Positions 2,375 to 43,456 of a stretch of 64,000 bases of DNA are shown piece by piece. A program made the translations under genes and the position numbers. The notes beneath the pieces were generated by a model. That model had not been told where the DNA came from and searched no databases. It was given only the letters and a program-made list of their open reading frames with translations. Position 1 is the first letter of the stretch. Each line of letters starts with the position of its first letter. Source of the DNA: Candidatus Omnitrophota bacterium (GTDB taxonomy: Bacteria > Omnitrophota > Gorgyraeia > B26-G9); assembly GCA_043814605.1 (NCBI GenBank), contig JBDRJV010000007.1:195354-259353 (forward strand). The letters are read 5' to 3'.

Positions 2375-4901
2375 AGGCGCCTTTCTTTTTTTTTGTTTTT
2401 CTTTAATTTTAATAATAAATATTTTTTTTGCGGGTATTGTTTTTGCGCAGGATGACTTAACGCCAGGTTGTTTTTTAAAGGTTTCTCAAAATTTAATCAG
2501 TGCCCAAATTAAAGATGTTTTAATCACAAAGGTTAACGGGTATGATCGCATTACGATTACCGGTTTAACCAATAGTGCGGCTGCCGGAAAACCGCGGTTA
2601 CCCGTTAAAACGGTTAAATATTTAGTCCCAGCTTCAATGCAGGTAAAAAATATTAGTGTGGCCTGGACAACTAAACAAACAGTTCCCGGTAGTTATCAAA
2701 TTGAGCCAGCGCAAGCTGTATATCCTTTGAGTTATAAAGGGATTATTAAGCCTACCTTGCCGGATGTAACGGTTTACAACTCCTTTTCATCTTATCCTGG
2801 TAAAATTTATGAAATTGTATCTGTTCAAAAATTCAGGGGTTATGAAATTCTAATTATTAATTTATATCCGGTTGAATATATTCCAGCCTTAGGTGCAATT
2901 TCCTATTATAAAAATCTAAACCTGAATGTAGAGCTTGAATCCGGAGTTGATGCTGATTTAATTCCTCTTTTTAGAGCTGCTCGTAAGGATCTTGAGGCAG
3001 TACAAAAAATTGTGGATAATCCTGGGCAAAGTAATACTTATCCGTTAAGTACAAAAAAACCATTAGCTCCGGGTGATGATGTGGATCTTTTGATTATTAC
3101 CAGCCCTGATTTTAAAGCTTATAGCGGAACGAATAGTTTAAGTGTTTTAGAAACGCACAAAGAATCATTAGGGGTGCAGACAAAGATTATTGATACAGCA
3201 TGGATTTATACAAACTATGCGGGAGCGGATAATCAGACTCGGATTCGTAATTGTATTAGTGATTACTATACTAACAGTGGAATAGAATACGTTCTTTTAG
3301 CCGGAGATAGTGATGGTAATTTTACAGATACAGTTGCGAGTGATGAAAGACAAGCTTATAATGATTCTAACCGTATTCCGCACCGGGGTTTTTATGCTGC
3401 ATATTCTACAGAGCTTGATTTAAATATTCCGGCAGATATGTATTATGGCTGTCTTGACGGAGACTTTAATTATAATGGGAATACGGTTTACGGAGAAACT
3501 AGTGATGGGCCTGGCGGGGGAGATGTGGATTTAATTGCCGAAGTTTATGTAGGCCGGGCTCCGGTTGATTCCACAACGGAGTTAGCCAATTTTGTCAAGA
3601 AAACTATTGCGTATGAAAATGCAACGGGCGCTTATTTAAATTCTGCTTGTTTTGTGGGAGAGTTTCTCTACGATATTTATAACACTTATGGTAAAAGTTA
3701 TATGGAAGAATTAAAAAATGGTTCTAGTGCTAATGGATATAGTACAGTAGGTATTAATGGCAGCGGATATTTTTCTTTTAATTCTCTCTACGATCAGGAT
3801 AGATCCTGGGATAAGGCAGAATTATCGGCGATTATTAATAATGGTGTGCATGTGATTAATCAAGTAGGGCATGCGACAAATACCTCTTTTGCGGCGTATA
3901 AAGGTTTTGCAAACTATGATGTTGATGTTTTAACAAATACGGATTATTTTTTTGGTTTTACGCAAGGATGTTATTCTGGGGCATTTGATAATCGTAATAG
4001 TAATTTAAATTATGAATCCGATGATTGTGTTTTAGAGCATTTTGTTAGCGAGCCGGCCGGTGCTTTTGCGTTTATTGGTAATTCCCGTTACGGCTGGTAT
4101 GAGCCGGGCGGTACAGATGGGCCTTCGCAGCTTTACCAGCGAGAATTCTGGGATGCAGTGTTTAAAGAGGGTTTTAAAAATATTGGCCGGGCCTTGGCTG
4201 ATGCCAAGGAAGATAATATTGGAGTGATTAATGCCAACGGAGCAAATCGTTGGAGTTATTTTGAAACTAATCTTTTGGGTGATCCCCAAACCCCTTTAAA
4301 CATAGAGGTTTTATCACCGCGAAATTTTACTGCTTCGAATATCAATTTTTCTAATTCTAGCTGGGTAAGTTTAACCTGGCAAAATCCGCAAAAGTCAGAT
4401 TTTTCACAGATAATGATCCGCTATCGTACAGATGGTGTTTATCCGGCGAATTCTACAGACGGTACTTTGCTCTGCTCTAAAGCTGCAACTGCGGGTGTAT
4501 TGGATAGTTTTAATCATCAAGCTATTAGTGCTAATACAACCTATAATTATGCAGGATTTGGTTATAATGGCATTATTTATGAAGGCAATGGTTCGGCGAA
4601 TAATCGGGCTAATTTAACCACGGTAGGTGCAGGTAGTGATGATTCCTCTCGCAGTAATTGTTTTGTAGCTACAGCGTGTTATGGGGATGAAAATGCTCCG
4701 GATGTGATTACTCTAAAAAATTTTAGGGATAATTTTTTAATAAAATTTTATGCAGGAAAAAAAATTATTAGTGCTTATTATTTGTTCGGACCGTATTTAG
4801 CTGATTTTATCCGGGAGAAGCAAGGGATTAAAAAATCGGTTAGCTTGTGCCTTAAACCTGTAGTTTTTGTTAGTAATCTTTTGATAGGAGGATGCCAATA
4901 A
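2361..4901 (+). CDS. Secreted peptidase C25 (gingipain-like) family protein with FN3-like region and Cys-rich hydrophobic C-terminal tail (CFI-box-like)
   Basis: 846 aa with a signal peptide (MLRSKGAFLFFCFSLILIINIFFAGIVFAQDD). Putative catalytic His (VINQVGHATNT) and Cys (FTQGCYSGAFD) lie ~33 residues apart, as in C25/gingipain. The C-terminus reads CFVATACYGDENAPDVITLKNFRDNFL…. The start overlaps the pilQ stop by 14 nt. Confidence 0.6.
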   Translation: MLRSKGAFLFFCFSLILIINIFFAGIVFAQDDLTPGCFLKVSQNLISAQIKDVLITKVNGYDRITITGLTNSAAAGKPRLPVKTVKYLVPASMQVKNISVAWTTKQTVPGSYQIEPAQAVYPLSYKGIIKPTLPDVTVYNSFSSYPGKIYEIVSVQKFRGYEILIINLYPVEYIPALGAISYYKNLNLNVELESGVDADLIPLFRAARKDLEAVQKIVDNPGQSNTYPLSTKKPLAPGDDVDLLIITSPDFKAYSGTNSLSVLETHKESLGVQTKIIDTAWIYTNYAGADNQTRIRNCISDYYTNSGIEYVLLAGDSDGNFTDTVASDERQAYNDSNRIPHRGFYAAYSTELDLNIPADMYYGCLDGDFNYNGNTVYGETSDGPGGGDVDLIAEVYVGRAPVDSTTELANFVKKTIAYENATGAYLNSACFVGEFLYDIYNTYGKSYMEELKNGSSANGYSTVGINGSGYFSFNSLYDQDRSWDKAELSAIINNGVHVINQVGHATNTSFAAYKGFANYDVDVLTNTDYFFGFTQGCYSGAFDNRNSNLNYESDDCVLEHFVSEPAGAFAFIGNSRYGWYEPGGTDGPSQLYQREFWDAVFKEGFKNIGRALADAKEDNIGVINANGANRWSYFETNLLGDPQTPLNIEVLSPRNFTASNINFSNSSWVSLTWQNPQKSDFSQIMIRYRTDGVYPANSTDGTLLCSKAATAGVLDSFNHQAISANTTYNYAGFGYNGIIYEGNGSANNRANLTTVGAGSDDSSRSNCFVATACYGDENAPDVITLKNFRDNFLIKFYAGKKIISAYYLFGPYLADFIREKQGIKKSVSLCLKPVVFVSNLLIGGCQ

Positions 4902-5884
4902 TGAAGCAAGGTTGTTGGTTTTTTTATATTCGCTGTATGTTTAGTTTTTTTATAATTTTGTTTACATTTACAAGTTTTAGTTATGCTTCTGAAGGCGGTG
5001 CGCGCCCGACATCTATGGGTGGTGCGTATGTTGCGATTTCTGATGATGTACACGCAGCGAGTTGGAATCCAGCCGGTCTGGGTTGGCAGAGAGATCGGGA
5101 AATTTCTTATTCGGGAATAATAAATTGCCGGGATGATTATATCACGGGTGATTTTATTAGTGATGACTATCTAGCTTATGCGCAGCCAATCGAATTTGGC
5201 GTAAGCAATGATGTTAATCCGTACGGCGGAATTGGTTTTTATTTTCATAATAATAACTATAGTTCGAGTACAGTCAAAACTTCTTTATGGCAGCCGGGAA
5301 TTGCTTATGGCCGAAGATTTTCGTCGTATGAAAATATGGGATGGGGAATTGCTTTAAATTATTATATGTTTGATTCTCAAATTCCCGGGCAAACAACTGC
5401 AGATGAGGCAATTTCGTTTAACCTGGGATATTTATGGTATTTAAATAATCAGCTCACATTAGGTTTGCTTTGTGAAAATGTGAATGAGCCGACCTATACG
5501 GTTCATGGAATTACTAATCGGTTGATTCGAGTAATGCGTCCGGGAATGGCCTATTATTTTAGTGATAATACGCTGATGAGTTTTGATATTTATGATTTAA
5601 CCGGGAATACGAGTGGTCGAGGCGGCGATTACAGTCAAAATTTACGGCTGGGATTTGAGCATTATTTTACAGATGAAATTTCTGTGCGTTTAGGAGTACA
5701 TCATCCTAACTCTAAAGTTGATGCAAGTAAGTTTTACAGCCTAGGATTAGGGCTAATGCATGCGGATTTTTTGAGCCTTTATCCTGTAACTTATTATATA
5801 GACTACACTTTTATATATTGGCAGGATCCGGTGGCTGGCTTTGAGGATTACACCCACCAGCTGGGACTGATAATAAGGTTTTAA
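4892..5884 (+). CDS. Outer-membrane beta-barrel protein, PorV/PorQ-like (putative)
   Basis: 330 aa with a signal peptide. The N-terminal motif SEGGARPTSMGGAYVAISDDVHAASWNPAGLGW resembles the PorV/LptO-family N-terminus. The protein is rich in aromatic/Gly beta-strand-like segments and ends in an aromatic residue (…LIIRF). It overlaps the C25 peptidase gene end by 10 nt. Confidence 0.4.
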   Translation: MPIMKQGCWFFYIRCMFSFFIILFTFTSFSYASEGGARPTSMGGAYVAISDDVHAASWNPAGLGWQRDREISYSGIINCRDDYITGDFISDDYLAYAQPIEFGVSNDVNPYGGIGFYFHNNNYSSSTVKTSLWQPGIAYGRRFSSYENMGWGIALNYYMFDSQIPGQTTADEAISFNLGYLWYLNNQLTLGLLCENVNEPTYTVHGITNRLIRVMRPGMAYYFSDNTLMSFDIYDLTGNTSGRGGDYSQNLRLGFEHYFTDEISVRLGVHHPNSKVDASKFYSLGLGLMHADFLSLYPVTYYIDYTFIYWQDPVAGFEDYTHQLGLIIRF

Positions 5885-15896: not shown

Positions 15897-15974
15897 CGGG
15901 GCGTGGCGCAGTTTGGCTAGCGCGCTTGAATGGGGTTCAAGAGGTCGGTGGTTCAAGTCCACTCGCCCCGACCA
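15897..15974 (+). tRNA. tRNA-Pro (anticodon GGG), CCA encoded
   Basis: Manually folded cloverleaf. 7-bp acceptor stem (CGGGGCG/CGCCCCG, with C1-G72 as is typical for bacterial tRNA-Pro), U8, 4-bp D-stem, 5-bp anticodon stem CUUGA/UCAAG with loop AU-GGG-GU, 5-nt variable loop, T-arm GGUGG-UUCAAGU-CCACU, discriminator A and 3' CCA. Confidence 0.88.
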
Positions 15975-16005
15975 GATAACTGAATCATTAATAAATTTTA
16001 ACATT

Positions 16006-16452
16006 ATGAAAAACCAGGAGTTAAAGGTAAGCCAAAAAATAAATTTTAAAGAGCAACGGAAATTTGTCCGGATCGATGCAAATTTTGTAGTAAGCTATTA
16101 TATTTATCCGAAACATATTAAAGAAACAGATATGACCCTAACTCGTAATTTAAGTTTAGGAGGGATTTGTTTTACCACGGATAAACATTTTCCTCCGGGG
16201 ATAATTTTGCAGATTACTTTAAGATTGCCTAAAATCTCTCATCTTGTTAAAATTTTAGGTGAAGTGGTTTATGTAAAACAGGAAAAAAATAAAAAAATAC
16301 TTTTTGATATCGGAATTAAATTTGTACAAATCAAAGAAGAAGATATTGTTACGCTTGAGGAAATAATTAATAATTGTGCTTCAGAGCTTAAAAAAATTAA
16401 TTTTAATCTTCAAAAAAAGAAAAAAAAAGAAAAAAGAAATGAAAATCATTAA
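16006..16452 (+). CDS. PilZ domain protein (putative c-di-GMP binding)
   Basis: PilZ signature motifs RxxxR (EQRKFVRID) and D/NxSxGG (TRNLSLGGICFTT). Start set to ATG 16006, because the ORF-track start 15913 lies inside the tRNA. The Lys-rich tail overlaps the hom start. Confidence 0.6.
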   Translation: MKNQELKVSQKINFKEQRKFVRIDANFVVSYYIYPKHIKETDMTLTRNLSLGGICFTTDKHFPPGIILQITLRLPKISHLVKILGEVVYVKQEKNKKILFDIGIKFVQIKEEDIVTLEEIINNCASELKKINFNLQKKKKKEKRNENH

Positions 16453-20201: not shown

Positions 20202-20230
20202 TTGACAGAAGAAAATAAGTATGCTATACT
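20202..20230 (+). promoter_or_regulatory. Sigma70-type promoter (TTGACA-17-TATACT)
   Basis: -35 TTGACA at 20202-20207, a 17-nt spacer, -10 TATACT at 20225-20230. Predicted TSS near 20237. Confidence 0.55.
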
Positions 20231-20236
20231 TATTAC

Positions 20237-20475
20237 AGAAGTTAATAAATCTTTTTATTAGTTTAAAAGAAGTTTAAAATTTATATCCGAAAATTCGCTA
20301 ATTTAAAAAGCGAATCCCGCCTTATCATGGCGGGAGGCAAATCCTTAAGAAATTAGGGATGCGCAAAGCTACGGGTCTAACGCAACAAGCTATGATCGCC
20401 GGGCGCACCGAGAACGAACAAGTTTGATGAAAGATAGCCGAGCTGCCGAGATATATGCAGTTCGGCTATTTTATT
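20237..20475 (+). ncRNA. Candidate small RNA / structured leader (~240 nt) of unknown family
   Basis: Bounded by the consensus promoter at 20202-20230 and an intrinsic terminator (10-bp stem AGCCGAGCUG/CAGUUCGGCU at 20436-20467, followed by AUUUUAUU). It contains GC-rich hairpins (AUUCGCU…AGCGAAU; UCCCGCC-UUAUCAU-GGCGGGA at 20315-20335) in an AT-rich background. No ORF of 60 aa or more. Confidence 0.35.
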
Positions 20476-20708
20476 AATTAAGGAAGGAGGATAAATGCGA
20501 AGTAAACAAAGTGTGCAAACTATAAGTTTAAATTATAATTTGGCATCATATATATTTTATAAATTTTTTATAAAAAAAGTTTGCATAAAAAATCAGAAAG
20601 GAGGAGACAGTTCACATTTATTAGATGATTTCATCATTATTATTTTAAATTTTTTTATGGCCTAATATATAATTTATAAAAATAACCTACACAAAGGGGG
20701 GGATTAAA

Positions 20709-23700
20709 ATGAAACAAGGTATACGCTATTATTCTTATTTTATTTTAGTATGTTTTTTAGTTAATATGTTAACAGTGAATGTTGGGTTGGCTTTTGATTT
20801 AAAGGCACAGCAGGATATGCTAATGTCCGATGAGGTAATCCAGGGAATTTTTGGCAGCCAGATTTCAGAACAAAGCCAGTCAAGTGATTTAAATCGGGAA
20901 ATAGCACCGGCGCCGAAAGTAATCACTACTTCTAACGGAGATGTCTACATTTATTCTGATGAAGGTGCTTCCGCACAAGTATCTAAGAATGAAACCGGGC
21001 ATACAGAAGTAACCTATTCCTTAAACGGAGCAAAAATTAAAATTAAAAATGAAAATACAGGTGAGGAATTTTCTTATCGCTATAATTTAAACGGCGCTCA
21101 GGTAAGTTTATACAGAATTGATGAAAATGGGAATGAAGCTTTGGTTTCTACTCAAACATTTAATAATTTTGGACAGCTTACTTCTACAGCAGGCCAAGGT
21201 AAAATTACTTATATTTATTCTCAAGACAACCCTGATATTTTGGTTAAATCAATTGATCAATGGGGCAATGAAACAATTTATGATGATCAGGGCCGGCCAG
21301 ATTATATTATTAATTATGATTCTGATGGTAATCAGGTTCAAGTGGGAAATTATACTTTTAATTCACGCGGAATTTTAGAAACTTTTGTCGATTATAATAA
21401 GAATGTGACGCATTTTGAAAATGACGGGATTAGACCGAGTTTTACTACCAATGCTCAAGGCACAACCACAAAGACATATACTTATGACGCAGATGGCCAT
21501 TTAGCTCAGGTTACGGACGAAGTAAACGGGCAGATTACCATAGTAGAAGACGGATACTACACAGTCACTTATAATGTTGAACCGGTTATGGATGAGCAGG
21601 GTGTTCCGGTTTTAGATGCGAACGGAGATCCAGTGGAGAATACAGTTTTAGTTGGCGCCTATAATTATAATGCTGCGGGTCAATTGGAAAGTATGACTAA
21701 TTTTGGCGATGAAGGAACCATGATGGGCTGGACTGAATTTGATGCTACCGGTCAAATATCCGGCGCTTATAACCAGCACGGGGTATTAATACAGGAGTAT
21801 TTTTATAATCAATTTGGCTTTCTTGAATACACAGTTGCTTTAGGCGCACTTAATAATTTAACTGATCAGCAAGTTAAAACTACTTATACAATTATGGATG
21901 ATCAGGGCCGGCCAAAGGAGGTTTGGCAGATTGGTGATGGCGGCAACAAAGTAAAAATCCAAGAATATGAATATGGCGCAGACGGATTGCTTGCGGCAAC
22001 TTATAGCTTAGGTATTATGCGCGGGTCAGATGAAAATAATCAAACTACTTACTGTCAGCCGATTAATGCGCAGGGCAATTTAGCTACAGATGAATCAGAA
22101 TATGTTTATTTTAGAACTTCAAAAACAGTATTTGATAGAAAAGGGCGTCCGGAATCAGTTTCGGCAGTCTGCTATCAAAGAGATGAGAATGATAATTTCA
22201 TTGTTGATGCCAATGGCGCTCCAGTGGCTGACCGAGATGAAGATGGGCAAATAATTTATGAAAAACAGCAGTCCTATAAATATAACTCCAAAGGTTTTCT
22301 TGCGGAAACTATCTCCTATGGTTTTAACGGCAGAATTACCGGAAAAACTGTATTTGATAAATTTGGCAGGCCGGAAGAGTCGTCAAATGGACAGGGGACA
22401 CTTACCCAGCGATATGTATATGGGGATGATGGATTTTTAAAGAAAACCATAAACTTTGGCGAAGATGGGGTGCAGACAGGACATACTTTGTATGATGAAA
22501 AAGCCAAACCCACAGAAGTATACAATCATGCAGGAACTTTAGTGCAAAAATATGTGTACGATGAAAACGGCTTGATGGTTATGAGCCTTAATTTAAACGG
22601 AGAAGACGGCTTAAACGGCATGCTTGTTTCTTCGATGGAAGATGCGGAATTAATTGCCGCAATGTGGGATAATTCTTTTGATGCTGAGATTATTGCCGTT
22701 ACCGGCAGTTTTGACAATCAGGCTTTAATGAATGCCATGTGGGAAAATATGGAGAGTAATCCGGAATTAGCAAAAAAGATCTGCCTGAAAGTAATCCAGC
22801 TTTTTAGTGACGGAGCAAAAGGCGGGGATCAGAACTTAATTAATGATGTAGGAACTGCTTATCATATGCTCGGACAGTTTTTAGAAGCAGAAGGTGATCA
22901 AGCTGGCGCAATTGCTGCCTATAAAGTTCAAGGCAGTGAGTTTACTGCAGCGATGGCGATTGGCGCTAGCGGTAATCCTGAATCAGTTACCGCTTGGTCC
23001 ACAGACCGCTTAGCACAAATGAATGACGGAGAAGGTGCAGATACAGCAGTGGTTACAGGGTATACAATTTTTGGCGGAGATTCTAAACCAATGGCATCTT
23101 ATCAATGCTATAATGACGGGCAAAATGGGTTACAAGTAACAAAGGTTCAGGATTTTATTTATAGTTATCAAACTACGGAAAGACGTTTAGTCGGACAAGA
23201 TGCAGAAGGTAAAGATGTATATGTTGATATTGAAGTTACAAGATTTTCAAATTCAGTACAGAAAACCGTTAATTATGGTGATAACGGTGCGGAAACTGGA
23301 TATACTTTATTTGATGATTATGGCAGGCAAAAAGCTACTTATAATGAGGAAGGACAGGTAACGCAAAAATATACATACAGCCGTGAGGGTTTTTTAACGT
23401 TAACTAAATCTTATGGTGTAGATGGCGCTTGTACAGGAGCAACAGTTTTTGATAAGTATTCCCGGCCAGTAGCTTCTTTTAATTTAGCCGGCAGTACGGT
23501 TTCTATCCCGGATGATTTAATTGCCGCTTTAAGTAATGGCCTGACAGAAGCGGATTTAGAAAATACACAATGGCAGCCGTATTTAAAAGGATTATCACAA
23601 ACTTTTGAATATAATGCAGAAACCGGGCTTATGGAATCCAGCAAATCCTGGGGTGAAGCTGTTGAGATAAGTGCAGCTAATATTGGGAATTTTGCCGATG

Positions 23701-26700
23701 CTTTAGGTTCTATTGAAGGCGATAAGAATTATAGTGTGGATTATGATTTTAATAGTGACGGGGTGATTAATGACGCAGATTTAGCGATATTCGAAGCTGC
23801 ATTTAGTGGTGCAAGTAATTTTGTGGCAGCTTATGGCTCAACTACAGGTGATGCTAATTTTGATCCCAGTTTAGATACCAATCAAGACGGTGTGATTAAT
23901 CGAACTGATGCCTCTGGGTTTAGCCGCACTTTTAGTAAGCCCACTAAATATCAGCCGACATTTACAGGTACGACATCCTATGATAAGTATGGTAAAGCTG
24001 TGGAAGTAACTAATGCTGAAGGTTCTGTGGTTAGCCGTTATGCGTATAATGAACGCGGTTTTATGATCAGATCAGATTCTTTTAGCTTAGATGAACAGGG
24101 TAATGAAATCAGAACCGGGTTTACTTTATTTGACGATAAATCTAGGCCAACGGAAACATATTCTGTTTATAATAATGGCAGTGGAGAACAAGCCGCATTA
24201 GCTCAAGTATATTTTTATAAAGATGGCTTTCTAGAACGAACTAAAAACTATGGAAAAGAAGGAACCTACACTGGTGAAACAGTATTTGATAAATACGGCA
24301 GACAGAGTGTGAGTTATAATGAAGAGGGCCAAAAAATATCTTCTTACAGCTACTCAAATCAGGGATTTTTAAAAAGTACTTCGAATTACGGGTTAGAGGG
24401 TGCGTATTTGGGAAAAACAGTTTTTGACCGCAAAGGCAGGCCGGCAGAATCCTATAATATGAGCGGAGCCCTGACCCAGAAATTTAATTATAATGAAGCT
24501 ACAGGGTTTATGCAATCCAGCACAAGTTATGGAGACCTTGATGAACAGGGCAATCCGACCCTGACTCAAACTACATTTTATGACGGTTATGGCAAAGCAA
24601 TACGCTCTGAAAATGAGCTGGGTATTGTGACCACAACTTTTGATTACGATGCTCAAGGATTTATGCTTAAATCAAACAGCTTAGCTTTTGTTGAAGATCC
24701 GGCTGCTGCGAATGCAATAACAATTACAAATAAAAATGCCGAAACTTTAACGGGTTATTATGTGGTTACCGGTTATACAGAATACGATAATTATTCCCGT
24801 CCCACAACAACCTATCAAGGCTACTGGGCTGATGAGCAAACAGGAGTGCAGACATTTTCTAAAGTGCAGGAATTTACATATGATAAAGGTTTTTTAGTCA
24901 GCACAGAAAGCTTTGGCCGCAACGGTGTTTCTACAGGCACAACAACTTTTGACCGTTATGGACGACAGGATGTCTCGAAAAATGAGTACGGAGAAGTAAC
25001 CACAAAATATAGATACTCTAACCGGGGATTTTTAAGTCAAACGTATAACTATGGGGCAAACGGTGCAATTACCGGAAGCACAACTTTTAATAGTTTAGGC
25101 CGTCCGGTTGAGGCTTATAATCAAAACAGAAAATTAGTGCAAACTTTTGAATATAATAAATCTACCGGAGCATTATTATTCAGCGAATCTTATAATTATG
25201 ATGATGCAGGCAATCAATTTAAAACTCAAATCACAACTTATGATGCTTTTGGTAAGGCAGATAAGGTATACAATACAATTGAAGATATAAATGATATTGA
25301 CCAGGATGGCGATACGACAGAATTAATAAAGGGTTATATGGTATCTTCATATCACTATGATGCTAGCGGATTTATGCTTAAGAGTTTTAGCTATGGCGAA
25401 CCGGATTTAGCAGAAACGCCTGCAGATGGAGGAGAATATCGAGGCCCTGTAACTGGTTTTACAATATTTGGCGATAGTGGCCGTCCAGAAGCTTCTTATA
25501 CTGTACATAATGGTAACTGGGATCCATTAGTACTAATTAATTTTAAAAGTGGAGATCAATTACCAGCAGGTGTAGCATTATCACAAGTGTTTATTTATAA
25601 CACTGATTTAGCTGGTACAAAGGATGCCAGTGCTGTAGAAAATTATCTGGCTGGGCCGCGTGAACAGAATACAGGTTTTGTAACTTTGACTGTGCGGTAT
25701 GGTGATAATCAAACTTTTGTGGAATTTACAACAATGAATAGATACGGACAGCAGGATACTTCTTATAATAACTACAGTGAGAAAACAACACAATTTAGGT
25801 ATAATTCATCCGGATCTTTAAGCCAAACCTATAATTATACTTTTGGCGGAAGAATATCCGGTAAAACCTATTTTAATGGAATGGGCAGGCCAGTCAAAGC
25901 TGTAAATGAATCGGGAATTCTGGTGCAGACTTTTAATTATAATAGTGCTACAGGTTTTCTGACGAGTACTGATACTTATGGAGCACCGGATGCTGAAGGT
26001 AAACAGGAAGTCACCCAGACAACATACTATAATGCAGAAGGAAAACAAACACATACTACCAATCCCGAAGGACAGACAGTTAGTAGGTTTGTCTATAATG
26101 AACGAGGATTTTTAACTGCTTCAGAAAACTGGGCTGTAGATGATAATGGGGTAGAAGTAAAAATCGGCTACACGGAAATGAGCGCAGAAACAGGCCGGCC
26201 AATTGCTTCCTACAGTGTTTCATCAACTGGCCTTGCCGTGAAAACTGCTGATTTTATCTATAGTACAGGTGCAATTACAGATAATGATGCGGCTCAAGCT
26301 TATGCCGCAATGTCACCTGCTGAACGTGATGCCGTGAACGATACTGGATTTGTACTGGGAACAATCTCATATATTGTAAATCAAAATTTAACTTCAGAAA
26401 CTACGAATATTGCCAATGTTTATAATCCGAATGCAGCAAAAACTATAGATCCGGAAACAGGAGAAGTTACTGCAGTTGATATTAGCAGCCAAATACTTTA
26501 TAACGGGTATTCAGTTAATGACAGCTATGGCCGTCAGCTTAATTCATATAATAAAGAAGGCAGCTTAATCAGCCGGAATTTCTATAAGCAGGGATTTATT
26601 AATAAAAGCATGAATTATGGAGAAGGCGGAGTGCAAATAGGGTCATTACTCTACGGTACTAATGGCAGGCCGACAATTGCGCTTAATTACCGAGGCGAAA

Positions 26701-27572
26701 AAGTCAGCGAATATCTCTATAATGATAAAGGTTTCCTTGCCCAAACACTTTCTTACTCAACCGGATTAGATGCGGACGGAAAAACTGTGGTACAGGTGAT
26801 GACTGGATACAGTAATTATGATGTCTTTGGCAAAGCCACTGAATCCTATCAGTTATTTGAAGTTGGCGAAATGGGTACGCCTCCGCCGTATGCTTATGAT
26901 GAAGACGGTTACCAGTTTGAAGCTGGCGGCAGCAAGAATTATGTTGTGATTCCTAAAGAGGATGGTAGCGGTATAGCTAAAGTTGAAACAATTAATGGCA
27001 CAGGCCTTGTTTCCAAGAATGTTTATAACGAATTTGGGGCATTACTCGAGACTCAAAACTATGGACGCGAGGGCGGTGTGATTACTACAGTAAAAATGGA
27101 CCTTTACAGCAGACCTACCATCGTTTATAATCATCTGAATGAAAAAGTACAAGAATATACATACAATAAAGATACTGGTTTCCTGAGTTATACAGTATCC
27201 TATTATAAAAAAGTGAATTCAAATGACGAAGGAGAAGTAGAAGACGGATTCAGCACGGAAAAAGAAACTTCTGTGACATTTTTTAACGCCTATGGCCAGC
27301 AATCTGTATCTTATTTATTAAACAACGAAGGAGAAGGGTTTGACGGTACATTAGATACAGTGGGTGCATTACAAAGCAAATATCAGTATAACGCTCAAGG
27401 ATTCCTGTACAAGACACTAATGTATAACGGTACAACCATGACAGGATATACAGTAAATGATGCCAGCGGCAGGCAAATCACACAATTTAATGCTTCTAAT
27501 GAGCCCACAGCATACTACTGGTATAATACTAATGGTTTCTTGCTCAGAATGTCTAATCCCACGCAGGAATAA
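20709..27572 (+). CDS. Giant secreted repeat protein (2287 aa) with YD/RHS-like ~46-aa repeats, an embedded dockerin-like Ca-binding pair and an alpha-helical insert
   Basis: Strong RBS (AAAGGGGGGG 6 nt before the ATG) and a signal peptide (MKQGIRYYSYFILVCFLVNMLTVNVGLAFD). There are dozens of degenerate repeats of the form TxFDxxGRPxxxYNxxGxLxQxYxYNxxGFLxxTxNYGxxGxxTG. The period is 46 residues, measured for example from FDKYGRQ to FDRKGRP. A dockerin-like pair lies near residues 1010-1075 (DYDFNSDGVINDADLAIFEAAF … DTNQDGVINRTDASGF). A non-repeat helical segment lies near residues 625-790. The gene is followed by an intrinsic terminator. Confidence 0.85.
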   Translation: MKQGIRYYSYFILVCFLVNMLTVNVGLAFDLKAQQDMLMSDEVIQGIFGSQISEQSQSSDLNREIAPAPKVITTSNGDVYIYSDEGASAQVSKNETGHTEVTYSLNGAKIKIKNENTGEEFSYRYNLNGAQVSLYRIDENGNEALVSTQTFNNFGQLTSTAGQGKITYIYSQDNPDILVKSIDQWGNETIYDDQGRPDYIINYDSDGNQVQVGNYTFNSRGILETFVDYNKNVTHFENDGIRPSFTTNAQGTTTKTYTYDADGHLAQVTDEVNGQITIVEDGYYTVTYNVEPVMDEQGVPVLDANGDPVENTVLVGAYNYNAAGQLESMTNFGDEGTMMGWTEFDATGQISGAYNQHGVLIQEYFYNQFGFLEYTVALGALNNLTDQQVKTTYTIMDDQGRPKEVWQIGDGGNKVKIQEYEYGADGLLAATYSLGIMRGSDENNQTTYCQPINAQGNLATDESEYVYFRTSKTVFDRKGRPESVSAVCYQRDENDNFIVDANGAPVADRDEDGQIIYEKQQSYKYNSKGFLAETISYGFNGRITGKTVFDKFGRPEESSNGQGTLTQRYVYGDDGFLKKTINFGEDGVQTGHTLYDEKAKPTEVYNHAGTLVQKYVYDENGLMVMSLNLNGEDGLNGMLVSSMEDAELIAAMWDNSFDAEIIAVTGSFDNQALMNAMWENMESNPELAKKICLKVIQLFSDGAKGGDQNLINDVGTAYHMLGQFLEAEGDQAGAIAAYKVQGSEFTAAMAIGASGNPESVTAWSTDRLAQMNDGEGADTAVVTGYTIFGGDSKPMASYQCYNDGQNGLQVTKVQDFIYSYQTTERRLVGQDAEGKDVYVDIEVTRFSNSVQKTVNYGDNGAETGYTLFDDYGRQKATYNEEGQVTQKYTYSREGFLTLTKSYGVDGACTGATVFDKYSRPVASFNLAGSTVSIPDDLIAALSNGLTEADLENTQWQPYLKGLSQTFEYNAETGLMESSKSWGEAVEISAANIGNFADALGSIEGDKNYSVDYDFNSDGVINDADLAIFEAAFSGASNFVAAYGSTTGDANFDPSLDTNQDGVINRTDASGFSRTFSKPTKYQPTFTGTTSYDKYGKAVEVTNAEGSVVSRYAYNERGFMIRSDSFSLDEQGNEIRTGFTLFDDKSRPTETYSVYNNGSGEQAALAQVYFYKDGFLERTKNYGKEGTYTGETVFDKYGRQSVSYNEEGQKISSYSYSNQGFLKSTSNYGLEGAYLGKTVFDRKGRPAESYNMSGALTQKFNYNEATGFMQSSTSYGDLDEQGNPTLTQTTFYDGYGKAIRSENELGIVTTTFDYDAQGFMLKSNSLAFVEDPAAANAITITNKNAETLTGYYVVTGYTEYDNYSRPTTTYQGYWADEQTGVQTFSKVQEFTYDKGFLVSTESFGRNGVSTGTTTFDRYGRQDVSKNEYGEVTTKYRYSNRGFLSQTYNYGANGAITGSTTFNSLGRPVEAYNQNRKLVQTFEYNKSTGALLFSESYNYDDAGNQFKTQITTYDAFGKADKVYNTIEDINDIDQDGDTTELIKGYMVSSYHYDASGFMLKSFSYGEPDLAETPADGGEYRGPVTGFTIFGDSGRPEASYTVHNGNWDPLVLINFKSGDQLPAGVALSQVFIYNTDLAGTKDASAVENYLAGPREQNTGFVTLTVRYGDNQTFVEFTTMNRYGQQDTSYNNYSEKTTQFRYNSSGSLSQTYNYTFGGRISGKTYFNGMGRPVKAVNESGILVQTFNYNSATGFLTSTDTYGAPDAEGKQEVTQTTYYNAEGKQTHTTNPEGQTVSRFVYNERGFLTASENWAVDDNGVEVKIGYTEMSAETGRPIASYSVSSTGLAVKTADFIYSTGAITDNDAAQAYAAMSPAERDAVNDTGFVLGTISYIVNQNLTSETTNIANVYNPNAAKTIDPETGEVTAVDISSQILYNGYSVNDSYGRQLNSYNKEGSLISRNFYKQGFINKSMNYGEGGVQIGSLLYGTNGRPTIALNYRGEKVSEYLYNDKGFLAQTLSYSTGLDADGKTVVQVMTGYSNYDVFGKATESYQLFEVGEMGTPPPYAYDEDGYQFEAGGSKNYVVIPKEDGSGIAKVETINGTGLVSKNVYNEFGALLETQNYGREGGVITTVKMDLYSRPTIVYNHLNEKVQEYTYNKDTGFLSYTVSYYKKVNSNDEGEVEDGFSTEKETSVTFFNAYGQQSVSYLLNNEGEGFDGTLDTVGALQSKYQYNAQGFLYKTLMYNGTTMTGYTVNDASGRQITQFNASNEPTAYYWYNTNGFLLRMSNPTQE

Positions 27573-27598: not shown

Positions 27599-27637
27599 AA
27601 CAAGCCTCAAGGTAATAGCCTTGAGGCTTGTTTTTTT
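27599..27637 (+). terminator. Rho-independent terminator
   Basis: AACAAGCCTCAAGG-TAATA-GCCTTGAGGCTTGTT hairpin followed by TTTTTTT. Confidence 0.7.
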
Positions 27638-27648
27638 AGTAATTTTAC

Positions 27649-27760: not shown

Positions 27761-28573
27761 ATGGAATTAGATTTAAAAAAAATTATTAAAAAAGAGTTTT
27801 TTTTAATTGCCGGGCCTTGCGTGATTGAGTCAGAAAAACTTTGTTTAGAACAAGCAAAATTGATCCGGGAAATTGCAAAGAGGGTTAATATCCATTTTAT
27901 TTTTAAAGCTAGCTTTGATAAAGCCAATCGAACAGCAGTAGATTCTTTTCGTGGCCCGGGATTAAAAAAAGGCTTATCAATACTTAAAAAAATCAAACAG
28001 ACATTAAAAATACCCATATTAACTGATGTGCACAGTCTTGACCAAGTTAGAGCTTGTGCCAGTGTTGTTGATATTATCCAAATCCCTGCATTATTATCGC
28101 GTCAAACAGATTTAATTGTTGGCGCAGCGCGCACTAAAAAAATCATCAATATTAAAAAAGGGCAGTTTATGGCTCCCTCAGATATGCAGAATGTAATTAA
28201 AAAGGCAGAATCCGCAGGCAATAAAAATATTATCTTGACTGAACGCGGAGTTTGTTTTGGGTATCATAATCTGGTGAGTGATATGCGTTCAATACAGATT
28301 ATGCAAAAATTTAATTATCCGGTTGTTTATGATGCAACTCACAGTGTGCAGCTGCCGAGTGCGGGAGGGGAAAAATCCGCGGGTGAGAGTCAATTTGTGA
28401 TTCCTTTGGCTTTGGCCGCAGTTGCTGCAGGCTGTAATGGATTATTTTTAGAAGTGCACAAAAACCCGAAAAAAGCACTTTGTGATGGGCCGAATATGAT
28501 TGCTATAAAAGATCTGGAGAAGTTATTAGGCAAGGCAAAAAAAATCTGGGAGACTGTAAATGAAAAAAAATAG
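27761..28573 (+). CDS. kdsA: 3-deoxy-8-phosphooctulonate (Kdo-8-P) synthase
   Basis: 270 aa; DAHP/KDO8P synthase family (…FIFKASFDKANRT…IPILTDVH…DATHSVQLP…). Confidence 0.9.
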   Translation: MELDLKKIIKKEFFLIAGPCVIESEKLCLEQAKLIREIAKRVNIHFIFKASFDKANRTAVDSFRGPGLKKGLSILKKIKQTLKIPILTDVHSLDQVRACASVVDIIQIPALLSRQTDLIVGAARTKKIINIKKGQFMAPSDMQNVIKKAESAGNKNIILTERGVCFGYHNLVSDMRSIQIMQKFNYPVVYDATHSVQLPSAGGEKSAGESQFVIPLALAAVAAGCNGLFLEVHKNPKKALCDGPNMIAIKDLEKLLGKAKKIWETVNEKK

Positions 28574-29528
28574 TTTTCAGGCGATTGCTAAAAAAGTTTT
28601 AAAAGTGGAAGCAAAAGCAATTCATGATTTACTGCCCAGAATAAATAAGAATTTTGATAAAGCTGTAAACCTAATTGCGCAATGCAGCGGGCGCGTGGTG
28701 ATTACGGGAATGGGAAAGCCCGGATTAATCGGCAGTAAAATTTCTGCTACTTTGGCAAGTTTAGGTGTACCCAGCTTATTTTTACATCCCGCTGAAGCTG
28801 TACACGGGGATTTGGGCCGGGTAGCTTGCGATGATATTATCATTGCAGTTTCTAACAGCGGTATGACTGAGGAAATAACCCGGCTTTTACCGATTATAAA
28901 AAAAATGGGGGTTAAATTAATCAGCTTTACCGGGAACCTAAAATCTCCGCTGGCTAAATATAGTGATGTAGTGCTAAATGTAAAAGTGGAAAAAGAAGCC
29001 TGCCCTTTTAATTTAGCTCCCACAGCCAGTACAACCGCAACCTTGGCTATGGGTGATGCATTAGCGGTTGCAGTTTTAGAAAAAAAAGGTTTTAAAATTG
29101 AAAATTATGCTTTTTACCACCCGGGAGGGAGTCTAGGGAAAAAATTGCTGAAAGTCAAGGATCTGATGCGTAAGGGGCTGCAAAATCCGATTGTTTATGA
29201 AAAGACTAAGGTGAAAACAGTACTTTTAAAAATTACCCGTTCAAGAGCCGGATGCGCTTGTATTGTGAATAAAAAAAAGCAGCTTATCGGAATTTTTACT
29301 GACGGAGATTTACGCCGCCATTTAGAAACAGAGCCGGATTTGTTATCTATGGAAGTAAAGAATGTGATGAGCCGCAATCCCATTACAATTAATAAAGAAA
29401 AGTTAGCACAAGAAGCCTTAAAAATACTCAAGGATAAAAAAATTGATGAAATACCGGTGGTGGATGAAAAAAAACATCCGGCCGGGCTTTTAGATGTACA
29501 GGATTTACTAAAAGCAGGTATTGTATGA
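28560..29528 (+). CDS. kdsD: Arabinose-5-phosphate isomerase (SIS domain plus tandem CBS domains)
   Basis: 322 aa; SIS domain (GRVVITGMGKPGLIGSKISATLASLG) followed by a CBS pair; positioned between kdsA and kdsC. Confidence 0.9.
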   Translation: MKKNSFQAIAKKVLKVEAKAIHDLLPRINKNFDKAVNLIAQCSGRVVITGMGKPGLIGSKISATLASLGVPSLFLHPAEAVHGDLGRVACDDIIIAVSNSGMTEEITRLLPIIKKMGVKLISFTGNLKSPLAKYSDVVLNVKVEKEACPFNLAPTASTTATLAMGDALAVAVLEKKGFKIENYAFYHPGGSLGKKLLKVKDLMRKGLQNPIVYEKTKVKTVLLKITRSRAGCACIVNKKKQLIGIFTDGDLRRHLETEPDLLSMEVKNVMSRNPITINKEKLAQEALKILKDKKIDEIPVVDEKKHPAGLLDVQDLLKAGIV

Positions 29529-30040
29529 ACAGAGAAAAAGCAAAAAAAATTAAAATTTTAATTACCGATGTTGACGGAGTATTAACTAACGCGATGATCG
29601 GCTATGGAAATTATAACGATACCTACCGGCAATTTAATATGCAGGATGGTTTTGGCTTGGTCTTGTTAAAAAAAACAGGGATAAAAACTGCGATTATTAC
29701 GGGCAAATCATCTCGATCTCTGGATCGCCGGGCACGGGAATTAAAATTTGATTTAGTTTGTAAGGATGTCGAAGTAAAAATGAAAGCGTTTAAGAAAATT
29801 TTAAAAAAATTTAAATTAACCCCGTCTGAAGCCTGCTACATCGGGGATGATTTATTGGATTTAGCGGTTTTAAAAAATGCCGGATTATCCGTTTGTGTAC
29901 CGGAAGCGCCTGAGGAACTTAAAGATACAGTTGATATTGTGACTAAAAAAAGCGGTGGTGCTGGTGCGGTACGAGAAATAATAGAGTTTATCCTAAAAGC
30001 CCAGGATAAATGGAGCGATATTGTTGAAAAATATCTATAA
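29525..30040 (+). CDS. kdsC: 3-deoxy-D-manno-octulosonate 8-phosphate phosphatase (HAD family)
   Basis: 171 aa; HAD motif I ILITDVDGVLTN, then …GDDLLDL…; position in the Kdo cluster. Confidence 0.85.
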   Translation: MNREKAKKIKILITDVDGVLTNAMIGYGNYNDTYRQFNMQDGFGLVLLKKTGIKTAIITGKSSRSLDRRARELKFDLVCKDVEVKMKAFKKILKKFKLTPSEACYIGDDLLDLAVLKNAGLSVCVPEAPEELKDTVDIVTKKSGGAGAVREIIEFILKAQDKWSDIVEKYL

Positions 30041-30055
30041 AAATAGAGAGAAATA

Positions 30056-30784
30056 ATGGAAGATCATTTACTGCGCACGGAATTACTTTCTAAATCATAT
30101 AAAAAAAAACAAATCGTAAAGCAGGTGAGTATTTCAATTAGAAAAGCTGAGGTTGTCGGGTTACTCGGTCCGAACGGTGCCGGGAAAACCACCACCTTTT
30201 ATATGGTTGTGGGATTAATTAGTCCGGATAACGGAAAAATTTTTTTTGATAATCGGGAAATTACGCATATGCCCATGTTTAAAAGGGCTCGCTGCGGAAT
30301 TGGATATCTTTCCCAGGAGCCGTCAATTTTTCGAAAATTAACAGTGGAAGAGAATATCATTGCGGTACTGGAGACTTTACCGTTAACAAAGCCAGAAAGA
30401 AAAAAACGTTTAGATGAATTGCTGGAAGAGTTGAGAATGACTCATTTAGCTAAAAGTAAAGCTTATATGCTCTCTGGCGGAGAACGCCGGCGTTTGGAAA
30501 TAACCCGCTGTTTAGTGACTAATCCCTCTTTTATTTTACTGGATGAGCCATTCTCCGGGGTAGATCCGATCGCGGTATTTGAAGTACAACAGATTATTTC
30601 AAATTTAAAGAAAAAAGGCCTGGGAATTTTGCTCACTGACCATAATGTGCGAGAAACATTGAGCATAACAGACCGCAGCTATATAATGGCGGAAGGAAAA
30701 ATTTTTATTTCCGGAACTGCCCAAGAACTTATTAATAATCCGGAAGCAAAAAAAATCTATTTAGGGGAACGTTTTGCCATGTAG
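30056..30784 (+). CDS. lptB: LPS export ABC transporter ATP-binding protein
   Basis: 242 aa; Walker A GPNGAGKTT, signature LSGGERRRLEI, Walker B ILLDEP; ~241-aa length and position after kdsC match LptB. Confidence 0.85.
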   Translation: MEDHLLRTELLSKSYKKKQIVKQVSISIRKAEVVGLLGPNGAGKTTTFYMVVGLISPDNGKIFFDNREITHMPMFKRARCGIGYLSQEPSIFRKLTVEENIIAVLETLPLTKPERKKRLDELLEELRMTHLAKSKAYMLSGGERRRLEITRCLVTNPSFILLDEPFSGVDPIAVFEVQQIISNLKKKGLGILLTDHNVRETLSITDRSYIMAEGKIFISGTAQELINNPEAKKIYLGERFAM

Positions 30785-41263: not shown

Positions 41264-42352
41264 TTATTTTTTTACGGATTCAATCAGACCTATTCCAATA
41301 AAAACAAAAATTATATTAGTCAGCCAGGCAGATAAGAGAGGGGAAAGTATGCCAATTTTACCTAAGGACAAGCTAATCGCATTCACTCCCCAGTAGCTAA
41401 AACTGATTGCCACACTCAAGCTAATTCCTAAAAACATACTTTGACTGCGATTACGGGTTAAAGTGAAAGGGACCGCAAAGAAAATAATAATGAAATTTGC
41501 CAAAGGAAATGCAATTTTATTGTATAAAATTACTAATTCTTTACTGGCTTTAAAACCACTATTTTTTAAGCGGTTAATATATTTTTTTAACTGCCAATAA
41601 CCCATTAATTCCGGTTGTAAATCTGCCCGCTCAATATCCCGGGGTTTTTCATTGATCAAGATCATTTTTTCTTTATAATGAGATGGTTTGCCGTTAATTT
41701 TACCATCCAGATATTCTGTAATTATACAATCATAAAAAATCCAGAAACCATCTAACCACTGAGCTTTTTTAGCTACGATTTGCCGGGATAATTCATTTTT
41801 CTGATTATTTTCAGATATTGTGATATTATTAATTTGCTGGCGTTTAATATCATAACTGCTGATAATGAAAATACGGTTATTTGATCCGTAAAGTGTAACA
41901 TTTTCAATAATTTTATTTTTATGTTTATCCTTTGTAGGTTTAAAATATTCTTCTTTTAGATTTATCGAATGTAAATACGAATCCGGCTTTATCAATTCAT
42001 TGACAGAAAAACTCACTGCACTCATAAAAATTCCAAATCCCAAAAATATCCAAACAATGCTCCAAAGGTTTATGCCGATAGCTTTTATCGCCATAATTTC
42101 ATTATTATGGTTTAACAGGCTTAAAGCAATAATCGTAGAAAGAATGATTATAATCGGTGAAATATTTACAAACAAAAACGGAGTGATTGAAAAATAGTAA
42201 TCGCAAAGTACAAATAAAGGAACTTTTGCCTTTACTATTTCATCCAGATGATCAAAGAGATCGATAATCCAGGATAATGAAATAAAAAGGATTAAACAGC
42301 CAATAAATGGTTTTAAAAATTCCGCTAAAATATATTCTTTAATTATTTTCAT
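41264..42352 (-). CDS. LPS export ABC transporter permease, LptG-like (YjgP/YjgQ family)
   Basis: 362 aa; YjgP/YjgQ permease topology (3 TM, periplasmic beta-jellyroll, 3 TM); paired with the adjacent paralogue. Confidence 0.7.
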   Translation of the reverse strand: MKIIKEYILAEFLKPFIGCLILFISLSWIIDLFDHLDEIVKAKVPLFVLCDYYFSITPFLFVNISPIIIILSTIIALSLLNHNNEIMAIKAIGINLWSIVWIFLGFGIFMSAVSFSVNELIKPDSYLHSINLKEEYFKPTKDKHKNKIIENVTLYGSNNRIFIISSYDIKRQQINNITISENNQKNELSRQIVAKKAQWLDGFWIFYDCIITEYLDGKINGKPSHYKEKMILINEKPRDIERADLQPELMGYWQLKKYINRLKNSGFKASKELVILYNKIAFPLANFIIIFFAVPFTLTRNRSQSMFLGISLSVAISFSYWGVNAISLSLGKIGILSPLLSAWLTNIIFVFIGIGLIESVKK

Positions 42353-42361
42353 AACATTTAA

Positions 42362-43456
42362 TTACTTTTCTAACATTTTTATGTTTAAAATTACGCCTAA
42401 AAATAAAAAAACGATATTTGCGAACCAAACACCAAAAAAGGCAGGTAGCTTATTACGTAGTGCTAAGCTCTCTCCGGTAGCCATTAATAAATAGTAACAT
42501 AGACATATTATCACACTTATGGCAAATCCCATAGAACGTTCTCGACGTTTTATTCTGATTGCTAAAGGAATTCCGATAAGAATAAATATCATACTACTAA
42601 AAGAAATTGCAAATTTTCGGTGTAGACCGACAAACAGCGGCGTTGCGTCAATATTTAAACTGCGCATTAGATTAATCTCACGCTGGAGTTCGTCAATTGT
42701 CATATCGGAAACCTTTTTTTTAAGCCGTGATGAAATTTGATCTTCAGCTAGCTTAAGCGAAAGCTGATATCTTTTAAAGTTAAGCTTATAAAACATTTCC
42801 GGATCTTCGAAGCTTGGCTCATCCGCTGTTCCATCATTCAATATTAATTTAATTGAATTTTTTTCAGGGATTGAAATAAACTGTCCTGTTCTTGCCATAA
42901 TCGATCTTGTCGGTTTATTTGTTTGCGGCTGATAAATGCGTACGTCCTCAAGATAATTTCCCCTGATTTTATAAATAAACATTATGTGGTCTTTAAAAGC
43001 TTTGATAAAAGTTTTTTCTTCTAAGTAAGTTGTGGGTTTTTTTATCCCGATTTCCTGTGTAATCACACGAATTTGGTAATGGGCATAAGGTATAATCGAA
43101 TCATTAAAATGCAGGCATAAGGCACTAAACAGGGTCCCAATCAATAAAATAGTACCTAAAAACGGGTACAAATTAATACCGCTGGATCGGATTGCGGTAA
43201 TTTCATTTTCATAAGACATACGCCCAAAAGTTAAAAGTGTCGCGGTAAGAATTGCAATCGGTATAGAAAAAATTAATAAACTGGGCATGAGAAATAAAAA
43301 TAATTGTGCAACGATTGTAAAATTAATACCTTTGGTGATTATTAATTCTACTAATTTTATTATATTTCCGATTACGAGAATAAAACTGATGATTACAGTT
43401 GAAAGAAAAAAAAGCGACAACCATTCACCCAAAATAAAATTTTTTAGAATTTTCAT
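42362..43456 (-). CDS. LPS export ABC transporter permease, LptF-like (YjgP/YjgQ family)
   Basis: 364 aa; …ENEITAIRSSGINLYPFLGTILLIG… is the typical YjgP/YjgQ motif. Confidence 0.7.
   Translation of the reverse strand: MKILKNFILGEWLSLFFLSTVIISFILVIGNIIKLVELIITKGINFTIVAQLFLFLMPSLLIFSIPIAILTATLLTFGRMSYENEITAIRSSGINLYPFLGTILLIGTLFSALCLHFNDSIIPYAHYQIRVITQEIGIKKPTTYLEEKTFIKAFKDHIMFIYKIRGNYLEDVRIYQPQTNKPTRSIMARTGQFISIPEKNSIKLILNDGTADEPSFEDPEMFYKLNFKRYQLSLKLAEDQISSRLKKKVSDMTIDELQREINLMRSLNIDATPLFVGLHRKFAISFSSMIFILIGIPLAIRIKRRERSMGFAISVIICLCYYLLMATGESLALRNKLPAFFGVWFANIVFLFLGVILNIKMLEK

Follow-up and report, generated by a model that had tools for sequence, protein, structure and literature searches.

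A conserved giant YD-repeat gene of Omnitrophota preceded by a c-di-GMP-I riboswitch, a candidate envelope or surface scaffold

The stretch of DNA analysed here, hereafter the window, comprises 64,000 nucleotides (nt) of a contig from a Candidatus Omnitrophota bacterium, with a G+C content of 35-39% and coding strongly biased to the + strand. Its subject is a + strand open reading frame (ORF) at 20709-27572, which codes for a giant, signal-peptide-bearing protein of 2,287 amino acids (aa) built of YD/RHS-type repeats, together with the leader in front of it, which carries a riboswitch of the cyclic di-GMP (c-di-GMP) I class. The start codon is separated by 619 nt from the end of the preceding apgM gene (20089). 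The ORF listing of the window places the gene where an earlier note, made from the letters alone, had put it, and the NCBI record 'MAG: dockerin type I domain-containing protein [Candidatus Omnitrophota bacterium]' (MAG, metagenome-assembled genome) is identical to the 2,287-aa product.

Omnitrophota are abundant, uncultivated and ultra-small bacteria, thought to live attached to other cells or to prey on them, and we know of no contact molecule in this phylum. In many bacteria, c-di-GMP is the messenger that governs attachment. The locus is put forward as a conserved candidate contact molecule of Omnitrophota, namely an exported YD scaffold with predicted c-di-GMP-dependent expression, and the riboswitch in the leader is the most informative functional clue.

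The giant gene and its product

The gene, its product and its terminator comprise the following features.

20709..27572, + strand: coding sequence of the giant YD-repeat protein, which NCBI lists from a Candidatus Omnitrophota MAG as 'dockerin type I domain-containing protein'
20709..20792, + strand: Sec-type signal peptide, aa 1-28, read from the sequence, with predicted cleavage after GLA
21066..22619, + strand: N-terminal YD-repeat array, aa ~120-637, from the repeat model; continuous beta-hairpins in the AlphaFold2 (AF2) prediction
22602..23066, + strand: TPR-like helical insert, aa 632-786, the single non-repeat module kept across every family member
23742..23915, + strand: type-I-dockerin-like module, aa 1012-1069, with the putative Ca loops DFNSDGVINDAD and DTNQDGVINRTD (PF00404)
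23973..27560, + strand: C-terminal YD-repeat array, aa 1089-2284
24123-26183, + strand: tandem ~225-aa super-repeat inside the C-terminal array, aa 1139-1825
27599..27642 (also given as 27599-27632), + strand: intrinsic terminator of the giant gene, a 15-bp stem with 7 G-C pairs followed by a T-run

The signal peptide, as read from the sequence, has the usual layout (a K/R n-region, an h-region and AxA), is kept in all orthologues and is the sole hydrophobic segment of the protein. Most of the remaining chain consists of a ~46-aa unit, for which an iteratively built repeat hidden Markov model finds 36 matches between aa 120 and 2284. The earlier note's description of a 2287-aa YD/RHS-repeat protein with a signal peptide is borne out by matches above the cut-offs to Pfam RHS_repeat (PF05593; 36.6 bits versus 22, in 4 stretches) and to NCBIfam TIGR01643 (YD_repeat_2x; 20.7 bits versus 15.8). 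Its proposal that the repeats stand in a 'distinct register' has to be given up: an ordinary YD repeat measures ~21-25 aa, each ~46-aa unit is a pair of such hairpins with alternating flavours (T-x-F-D-x-x-G-R-P... and Y-x-Y-N-x-x-G-F-L...N-Y-G-x-x-G), and TIGR01643 is itself a two-repeat model, so that a new repeat type is ruled out. The strip holds about 70 YD/RHS-type beta-hairpins in total. Within the C-terminal array, three blocks of four units (aa 1139-1356, 1357-1584 and 1585-1825) align with one another end to end with scores of 308-397, compared with 49+-9 for shuffled sequences, indicating that part of the array grew by duplication of a ~225-aa super-repeat. A whole-protein sequence search of the PDB returns no match, and Pfam scans of aa 29-190, aa 1585-1680 and aa 1815-1940 give nothing above threshold.

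Structure prediction was carried out with alignments of 11-12 sequences and with the protein folded as separate halves. Both halves are modelled almost wholly as beta-hairpins; the C-terminal half consists of them throughout (predicted local distance difference test, pLDDT, 81.7; predicted template modelling score, pTM, 0.75). A Foldseek search with this C-terminal model returns, as its top 48 matches, Rhs effectors of the type VI secretion system (T6SS), Tc BC cocoons, teneurins and SGS1 (E 1e-30 to 1e-13). The confident C-terminal model, predicted apart from the other half and from a shallow alignment, shows no clear global superposition on the Rhs cocoons.

Every part that makes Rhs, Tc and teneurin proteins into toxin containers is absent from the giant protein. 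Specifically, the RHS-associated core (TIGR03696) is not among the NCBIfam matches at E<=1, which consist of TIGR01643 alone; a regular-expression search for the DPxG motif of the aspartyl autoprotease gives zero hits in 2,287 residues; and there is no C-terminal toxin domain, as the chain stops 3 residues past the last repeat, ending ...GFLLRMSNPTQE. The lack of an RHS core and of a C-terminal toxin had already been remarked upon in the earlier note, and it holds. Moreover, no immunity gene lies adjacent, the next gene being kdsA, beyond a terminator, and a Pfam scan of 41 window ORFs reveals no PAAR, VgrG, T6SS, TcA or WapA-type delivery context. These 41 ORFs are housekeeping genes apart from a single secretin and a single C25 peptidase at a distance of ~16 kb, and the same housekeeping synteny surrounds the orthologue in 6 other genomes.

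The pair of type-I-dockerin Ca loops that the earlier note had placed at nt ~23740-23935 is recovered by Pfam Dockerin_1 (PF00404) at nt 23742-23915, with 28.5 bits in the whole protein and 33.4 bits in the excised segment (cut-off, 22.9). When the PDB is searched with a profile of the five two-loop members, the best matches are cellulosomal dockerins, with 2y3n_B first (E 2.4e-7, both loops), and the AF2 model, assigned with DSSP, has the dockerin layout of loop-helix, short helix and loop-helix; the Pfam, PDB profile and AF2 results thus agree with a dockerin. In the sequence, both loops show the canonical Ca-ligand positions D1, N3, D5, G6, N9 and D12. The module is complete, with two loops, in the window protein and in its orthologues at loci L001, L004, L005 and L009, is down to one loop in L002, L003, L007, L010, L011 and L021, and is missing from L006 and L022, the two most divergent members, with the remainder of the protein conserved. 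The Pfam scan of the 41 window ORFs finds no cohesin domain. Because the module is variably kept and the window holds no cohesin, it does not show a cohesin scaffold, and the earlier note's inference of a cohesin-like docking partner is weak. The dockerin, judged from its distribution, is probably an accessory, Ca-dependent stabilising or binding element. Non-cellulosomal dockerins have been noted in giant ORFs of Omnitrophota as possible adhesins (PMC10066038).

The second non-repeat module is the Ala-rich helical insert, which the earlier note had correctly described as helical and non-repetitive and had not recognised as a tetratricopeptide repeat (TPR) domain of a large unnamed family. AF2 places seven helices at aa ~643-774 (pLDDT 85-93), modelled as a 3-TPR domain with the helix-turn-helix repeat fold, and the closest structural relatives are YbgF/CpoB (2xev), BamD (8adg_D), LpoP (6w5q) and SprE. 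Among the Pfam TPR models, the window insert comes nearest to TPR_8 (E 0.02, 15.5 bits), below the cut-off of 25.7, while stand-alone relatives pass generic TPR models over the central hairpin only and show weak NCBIfam matches to YbgF, BamD and PorW. The family (~120 aa) counts at least 764 representative proteins at E<=1e-3, bears the signature motifs WALNDVGTCYFILG and AQCWDPxGWFW (also given as AQCWDPxGWFWKVA), and has no Pfam or NCBIfam model beyond the generic TPR matches. Its members take the form of small secreted proteins or lipoproteins, of tandem arrays of 2-6 copies, and of fusions to GT2/cellulose-synthase-like and chitobiase-type domains. Two stand-alone genes were inspected, one of which lies in a sugar-ABC/GH2/ROK locus and the other beside a LacI regulator and an autotransporter; overall, a link to glycan enzymes or sugar-uptake genes was seen for four relatives that were inspected. 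In the L021 orthologue (P0025), a second copy of the TPR-like domain occurs further along the YD array (aa ~880-1010), and the module has thus been inserted or duplicated within the giant-protein family.

The leader and its c-di-GMP-I riboswitch

The leader between apgM and the giant gene contains the following features.

20202..20230, + strand: candidate sigma-70-like promoter (TTGACA, 17 nt, TATACT, extended -10 TG), with an 11/12 match to the consensus, the best in the region
20326..20450, + strand: aptamer of the c-di-GMP-I riboswitch (Rfam RF01051); the distal arm of P2 holds a long insertion that hardly varies
20436..20475, + strand: expression platform, an intrinsic terminator with its 5' arm (20436-20446) formed by the 3' strand of aptamer P2, its 3' arm at 20457-20467 and a U-run at 20468-20475
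20480..20665, + strand: strong GAAAGGAGG motif resembling a Shine-Dalgarno (SD) sequence (20480-20491) and short leader ORF of 56 aa (ATG 20495 to TAA 20665)

The earlier note had credited the gene with a long leader and a terminator of its own; both are present, and the riboswitch with its overlapping terminator had gone unnoticed. The Rfam covariance model RF01051 matches over its full length (1-87) with 48.2 bits, the gathering score being 35. Conserved GGCAAA, CGCAAAGC and GCUGCCGA segments, which we take to be the ligand-contacting nucleotides, agree with the Rfam consensus. The strand of the final aptamer helix, GAUAGCCGAGCUGCC, pairs with GCAGUUCGGCU at 20457-20467, directly before the U-run, and in the ligand-free minimum free energy fold of 20300-20480 (-63.1 kcal/mol, z = -4.9) the terminator hairpin replaces P2. 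Since the terminator takes its 5' arm from the aptamer, it cannot coexist with the ligand-bound form of the latter, and from this exclusion an ON switch is predicted; ligand specificity and the direction of switching are likewise predicted, by analogy with the Bc2 riboswitch of Bacillus thuringiensis (PMC4933901) and from the general role of c-di-GMP riboswitches (PMC6366702). With a candidate promoter upstream and an intrinsic terminator at the 3' end, the riboswitch and the giant gene make up a monocistronic unit.

The same arrangement recurs in the orthologous leaders. Of the 15 distinct loci for which upstream DNA is available, 12 have an aptamer in front of the orthologue, in L005 in the form of the GGC variant; in ten loci besides the window the aptamer scores 36.7-67.9 bits, the L005 aptamer (5690-5811) being best matched as the c-di-GMP-I-GGC variant RF03167 with 67.9 bits. 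Compensatory double changes are present in 9 of the 30 predicted aptamer pairs across 8 orthologous aptamers. In all riboswitch-bearing leaders, the 5' arm of the terminator is the 3' strand of aptamer P2 and is followed by a U-run, and in 10 orthologous leaders the terminator helix is 91.8% paired, versus <=49% in controls with the 3' arm shifted by 1-3 columns. The terminator helix of these 10 leaders shows no double-sided covariation, as is to be expected of a helix whose 5' arm has to fit the aptamer as well, and its support comes from conservation and the shifted controls. These comparisons indicate that the riboswitch, the terminator overlap and their pairing with the giant gene are ancient and under selection.

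Several peculiarities of the leaders deserve description in their own right. In the distal part of P2 (window 20385-20411, alignment columns ~69-92), 49 nt are inserted in place of the 13 nt of the Rfam consensus, and the core of this insertion, GAUCGCCGGGCGCACCGAnAACG, is near-invariant among orthologues. Such conservation exceeds what a plain stem needs and hints at a second binding site or at a tertiary contact peculiar to the lineage. A metagenome scan with 18 nt of this insertion returned 120 stretches, two of which are real (L070 and L081), the rest being chance matches in GC-rich contigs. L070 is another member of the giant-gene family. L081 (3760-4191) has a riboswitch of the same subtype, complete with the P2 insertion and the terminator overlap, before an unrelated small ORF with a signal peptide (MNFRKSKVIDKVLIVFIALVMIQ...), after which the contig ends. 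The orthologous aptamers vary between the canonical GAC and 'GGC' before GCAAAGC (L005, and also L002 and L010); such mixing upstream of one orthologous gene suggests that the GGC variant may leave ligand specificity unchanged. Past the terminator, at a distance of ~20-30 nt, the SD-like motif is found in every riboswitch-bearing leader (L002-L005, L007, L009-L011, L017, L022 and L070), and the window holds a second copy at 20597-20608. The short leader ORFs are poorly conserved and are in frame with the main ORF in L022 and L070. Together, motif and ORF could specify a leader peptide, serve to load ribosomes or add a second layer of control.

Orthologues, synteny and neighbouring genes

A word-indexed search of 5.8 billion proteins yields 18 relatives with 30-51% identity and one weak match, and 13 of the 18 align over 99-100% of the query. 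All relatives with a source name are assigned to Omnitrophota/Omnitrophica or 'PVC group'. With one genome scanned for each GTDB species, 16 loci come up, of which 14 stand under the name Candidatus Omnitrophota, one under 'PVC group bacterium' and one under 'uncultured Planctomycetia'. The family proteins measure 2.2-3.0 kaa (thousand aa), and the gene sits in the conserved order PilZ, hom, thrC, apgM, giant gene, kdsA, kdsD, kdsC, lptB, hpf, ptsN, yvcK, HPr, ptsI; L022, the most divergent member, keeps the upstream block, and its kds genes are not adjacent. The conserved synteny points to a vertically inherited core gene and to no mobile cassette, and on the evidence of gene order and homology the giant gene is a syntenic core gene, so far from Omnitrophota only.

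Several neighbouring genes were noted alongside. A small PilZ-domain protein, a type of c-di-GMP receptor, is encoded at window 15913-16452 (+), just upstream of hom-thrC-apgM in every orthologous locus and four genes before the riboswitch-controlled gene; its listed TTG start overlaps tRNA-Pro(GGG) at 15897-15974, and the true start is probably further downstream. Downstream, the kdsA-kdsD-kdsC-lptB cluster (window 27761-30784, +) has neither lptC nor lptA between kdsC and lptB, an arrangement that differs from that of E. coli, and lptF and lptG lie on the minus strand at 41264-43456. We did not adopt the idea that the giant gene is functionally tied to the kds/lpt genes downstream, given the lack of adjacency in L022 and the intervening terminator. 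At window 749-4901 (+), a secretin of the type II secretion or type IV pilus kind (STN and Secretin_N domains) overlaps stop to start with an 846-aa gingipain-like Peptidase_C25 with propeptide, an unusual pairing that might constitute a dedicated export route for the protease.

Proposed role and relation to known systems

The reading preferred here, to which we assign a probability of about 0.6 from the sequence comparisons and models, is that the product is a c-di-GMP-induced, cargo-less YD strip that acts as an envelope or surface scaffold, as an adhesin or matrix protein. At low c-di-GMP levels, the leader would fold into the intrinsic terminator by using the 3' strand of the aptamer, and transcription would end before the giant gene. 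Conversely, upon binding of c-di-GMP, the aptamer would hold this strand, block the terminator and allow the 6.9-kb mRNA to be made. The product would be exported by Sec with removal of the signal peptide, and the chain would fold into a long strip of YD hairpins bearing the TPR module and, in the lineage of the window, the dockerin-like module, presumed to bind Ca. As a scaffold of the envelope or surface, the strip would serve attachment or a matrix, probably through glycans or a partner protein, and expression would coincide with the moment when host-dependent nanobacteria raise c-di-GMP and go attached. The analysis shows the ORF, its repeats and domains, the riboswitch with its terminator overlap, the synteny and the absence of toxin parts; the ligand response and its direction, the final cellular location, the adhesive or glycan-binding role and the binding partner are the parts of this scheme that we infer.

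Several observations weigh against this reading. Concerning control, no Rfam riboswitch is found in L001 (5635-6001), L006 (5723-6001) or L021 (upstream of 4819), in the first two even at E<=1, and none of the loci examined has a protein closer to the window protein than L001 (49% identity); the control element is thus not universal and was lost or replaced more than once. Moreover, a second promoter-like site at 20644-20673, downstream of the riboswitch, could bypass it. Concerning the protein, the window TPR domain has lost the AQCWDPxGWFW motif of its family, the link to glycans comes from four inspected relatives out of 764 matches, and the AF2 halves, modelled separately from shallow alignments, would be compatible with a closed shell of the whole chain. 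Lastly, no outer-membrane route and no anchor motif was recognised in the protein, which could stay in the periplasm, where the structural relatives of the insert reside.

The main rival builds on this last point and holds that the protein is a periplasmic or outer-membrane-associated scaffold for envelope biogenesis or maintenance and no surface adhesin. The export signal is of the Sec type only, with no recognisable signal for translocation across the outer membrane or anchoring in it; the neighbours of the TPR insert (YbgF/CpoB, BamD, LpoP, SprE) are periplasmic envelope factors; stand-alone relatives show weak NCBIfam matches to YbgF, BamD and PorW; and the gene lies directly upstream of kdsA-kdsD-kdsC-lptB in most genomes. 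The periplasmic scaffold is unlikely, albeit to be taken seriously. The roles in cohesin docking and as a toxin container are less likely, because the dockerin is variable, no cohesin occurs in the window and the toxin parts are absent. A cellulosome-like assembly, in which docking of the internal dockerin to a cohesin-bearing scaffold would be the main function, can draw on the Dockerin_1 match above the Pfam cut-off, on the profile that spans both loops of 2y3n_B and on the canonical Ca-ligand positions. Yet the module is internal and not terminal, six orthologues keep one loop and L006 and L022 none in an otherwise conserved protein, no cohesin is encoded in the 41 window ORFs, and non-cellulosomal dockerins without known cohesin partners are widespread according to Peer et al. 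2009 as related in PMC10066038; such an assembly is therefore quite improbable. An Rhs/Tc-type toxin container, with the strip closing as a cocoon that encloses a toxic domain and hands it over to host or competitor cells, would fit the Foldseek matches, a total length of ~2,200 aa comparable to that of a TcB-TcC fusion and the proposal that Omnitrophota are predators or parasites (PMC10066038); with the toxin parts missing, it is very improbable indeed.

A bolder version of the preferred reading is that the cargo-less YD strips form a class of their own, shaped as an open hollow spiral or tube, which would be the c-di-GMP-triggered attachment device of host-dependent Omnitrophota, with the 'WALNDV/CWDPxGWFW' TPR-like domain as its glycan-recognition module, of a kind not recognised before. 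This version is tentative and, taken as a whole, rather doubtful. If true, the same TPR-like glycan module would also serve glycan enzymes and small secreted proteins by the hundred. For the scaffold reading in general, an RHS/YD fold employed as a core structural protein without toxin parts bears on the relation between toxin cocoons and teneurin-like adhesion proteins. The riboswitch-gene pair lends itself to in vitro tests that require no culture of the organism and offers a handle on attachment in an uncultivated phylum, while the unnamed TPR-like family, whose inspected members lie near glycan-handling genes, merits a family definition.

Among known systems, the YD shells of Rhs, Tc BC and teneurin proteins (7q97, 4igl, 6fb3) share with the giant protein the YD repeats above the cut-offs and the strip of antiparallel beta-hairpins, with Foldseek E values down to 1e-30. 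In contrast to them, the giant protein lacks an RHS core, DPxG motifs, an N-terminal plug, a toxin and a delivery-system context; its modelled geometry, obtained from separate AF2 halves, shows no clear superposition on a cocoon, and its gene is core and syntenic rather than polymorphic. It is also about twice as long as the Rhs shell of the T6SS. Regarding control, the nearest counterpart is the Bc2 riboswitch of Bacillus thuringiensis, in which c-di-GMP binding promotes read-through into the collagen-adhesin gene Cap (PMC4933901). In both systems, a gene for a large exported protein of the adhesin type has a 5' leader that contains a c-di-GMP-I aptamer and combines a terminator/anti-terminator with ligand-dependent read-through, here as a prediction. 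They differ in the phylum, Omnitrophota being diderm, in the unrelated cargo gene and in the long conserved P2 insertion, and the function of the Omnitrophota element is predicted from sequence.

Within the same phylum, the 'Antiparallel beta-helix' tubules (West-Roberts et al., bioRxiv 10.1101/2023.11.21.568195) share export, dockerin/EF-hand modules and a proposed role in attachment, and are described as long hollow spirals of antiparallel beta-sheet that their authors liken to RHS repeats. These proteins exceed 30,000 aa and are membrane-anchored, poorly conserved and multi-enzyme, whereas the giant protein, compared with them by description, measures 2.3 kaa, is well conserved and syntenic, matches RHS_repeat directly and is riboswitch-controlled, as predicted from its leader. 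With type I dockerins (PF00404; 2y3n_B, 1ohz_B) the accessory module has in common the duplicated 12-residue Ca loop plus helix and a score above the gathering threshold; it differs from them in its internal position, an inter-loop linker that is ~10 residues longer, its variability among orthologues and the lack of a cohesin in the window ORFs scanned. Compared with the periplasmic 3-TPR modules of YbgF/CpoB (2xev), BamD (8adg_D) and LpoP (6w5q), the insert belongs to a sequence family of its own, marked by WALNDVGTCYFILG and AQCWDPxGWFW, and is placed inside a YD array. The Omnitrophota full-text literature, searched for 'riboswitch' and 'dockerin', gives no account of the giant family or of its control. 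YD repeats, dockerin, TPR domain and c-di-GMP-I riboswitch are each known, and their combination in one conserved locus is new to the literature searched.

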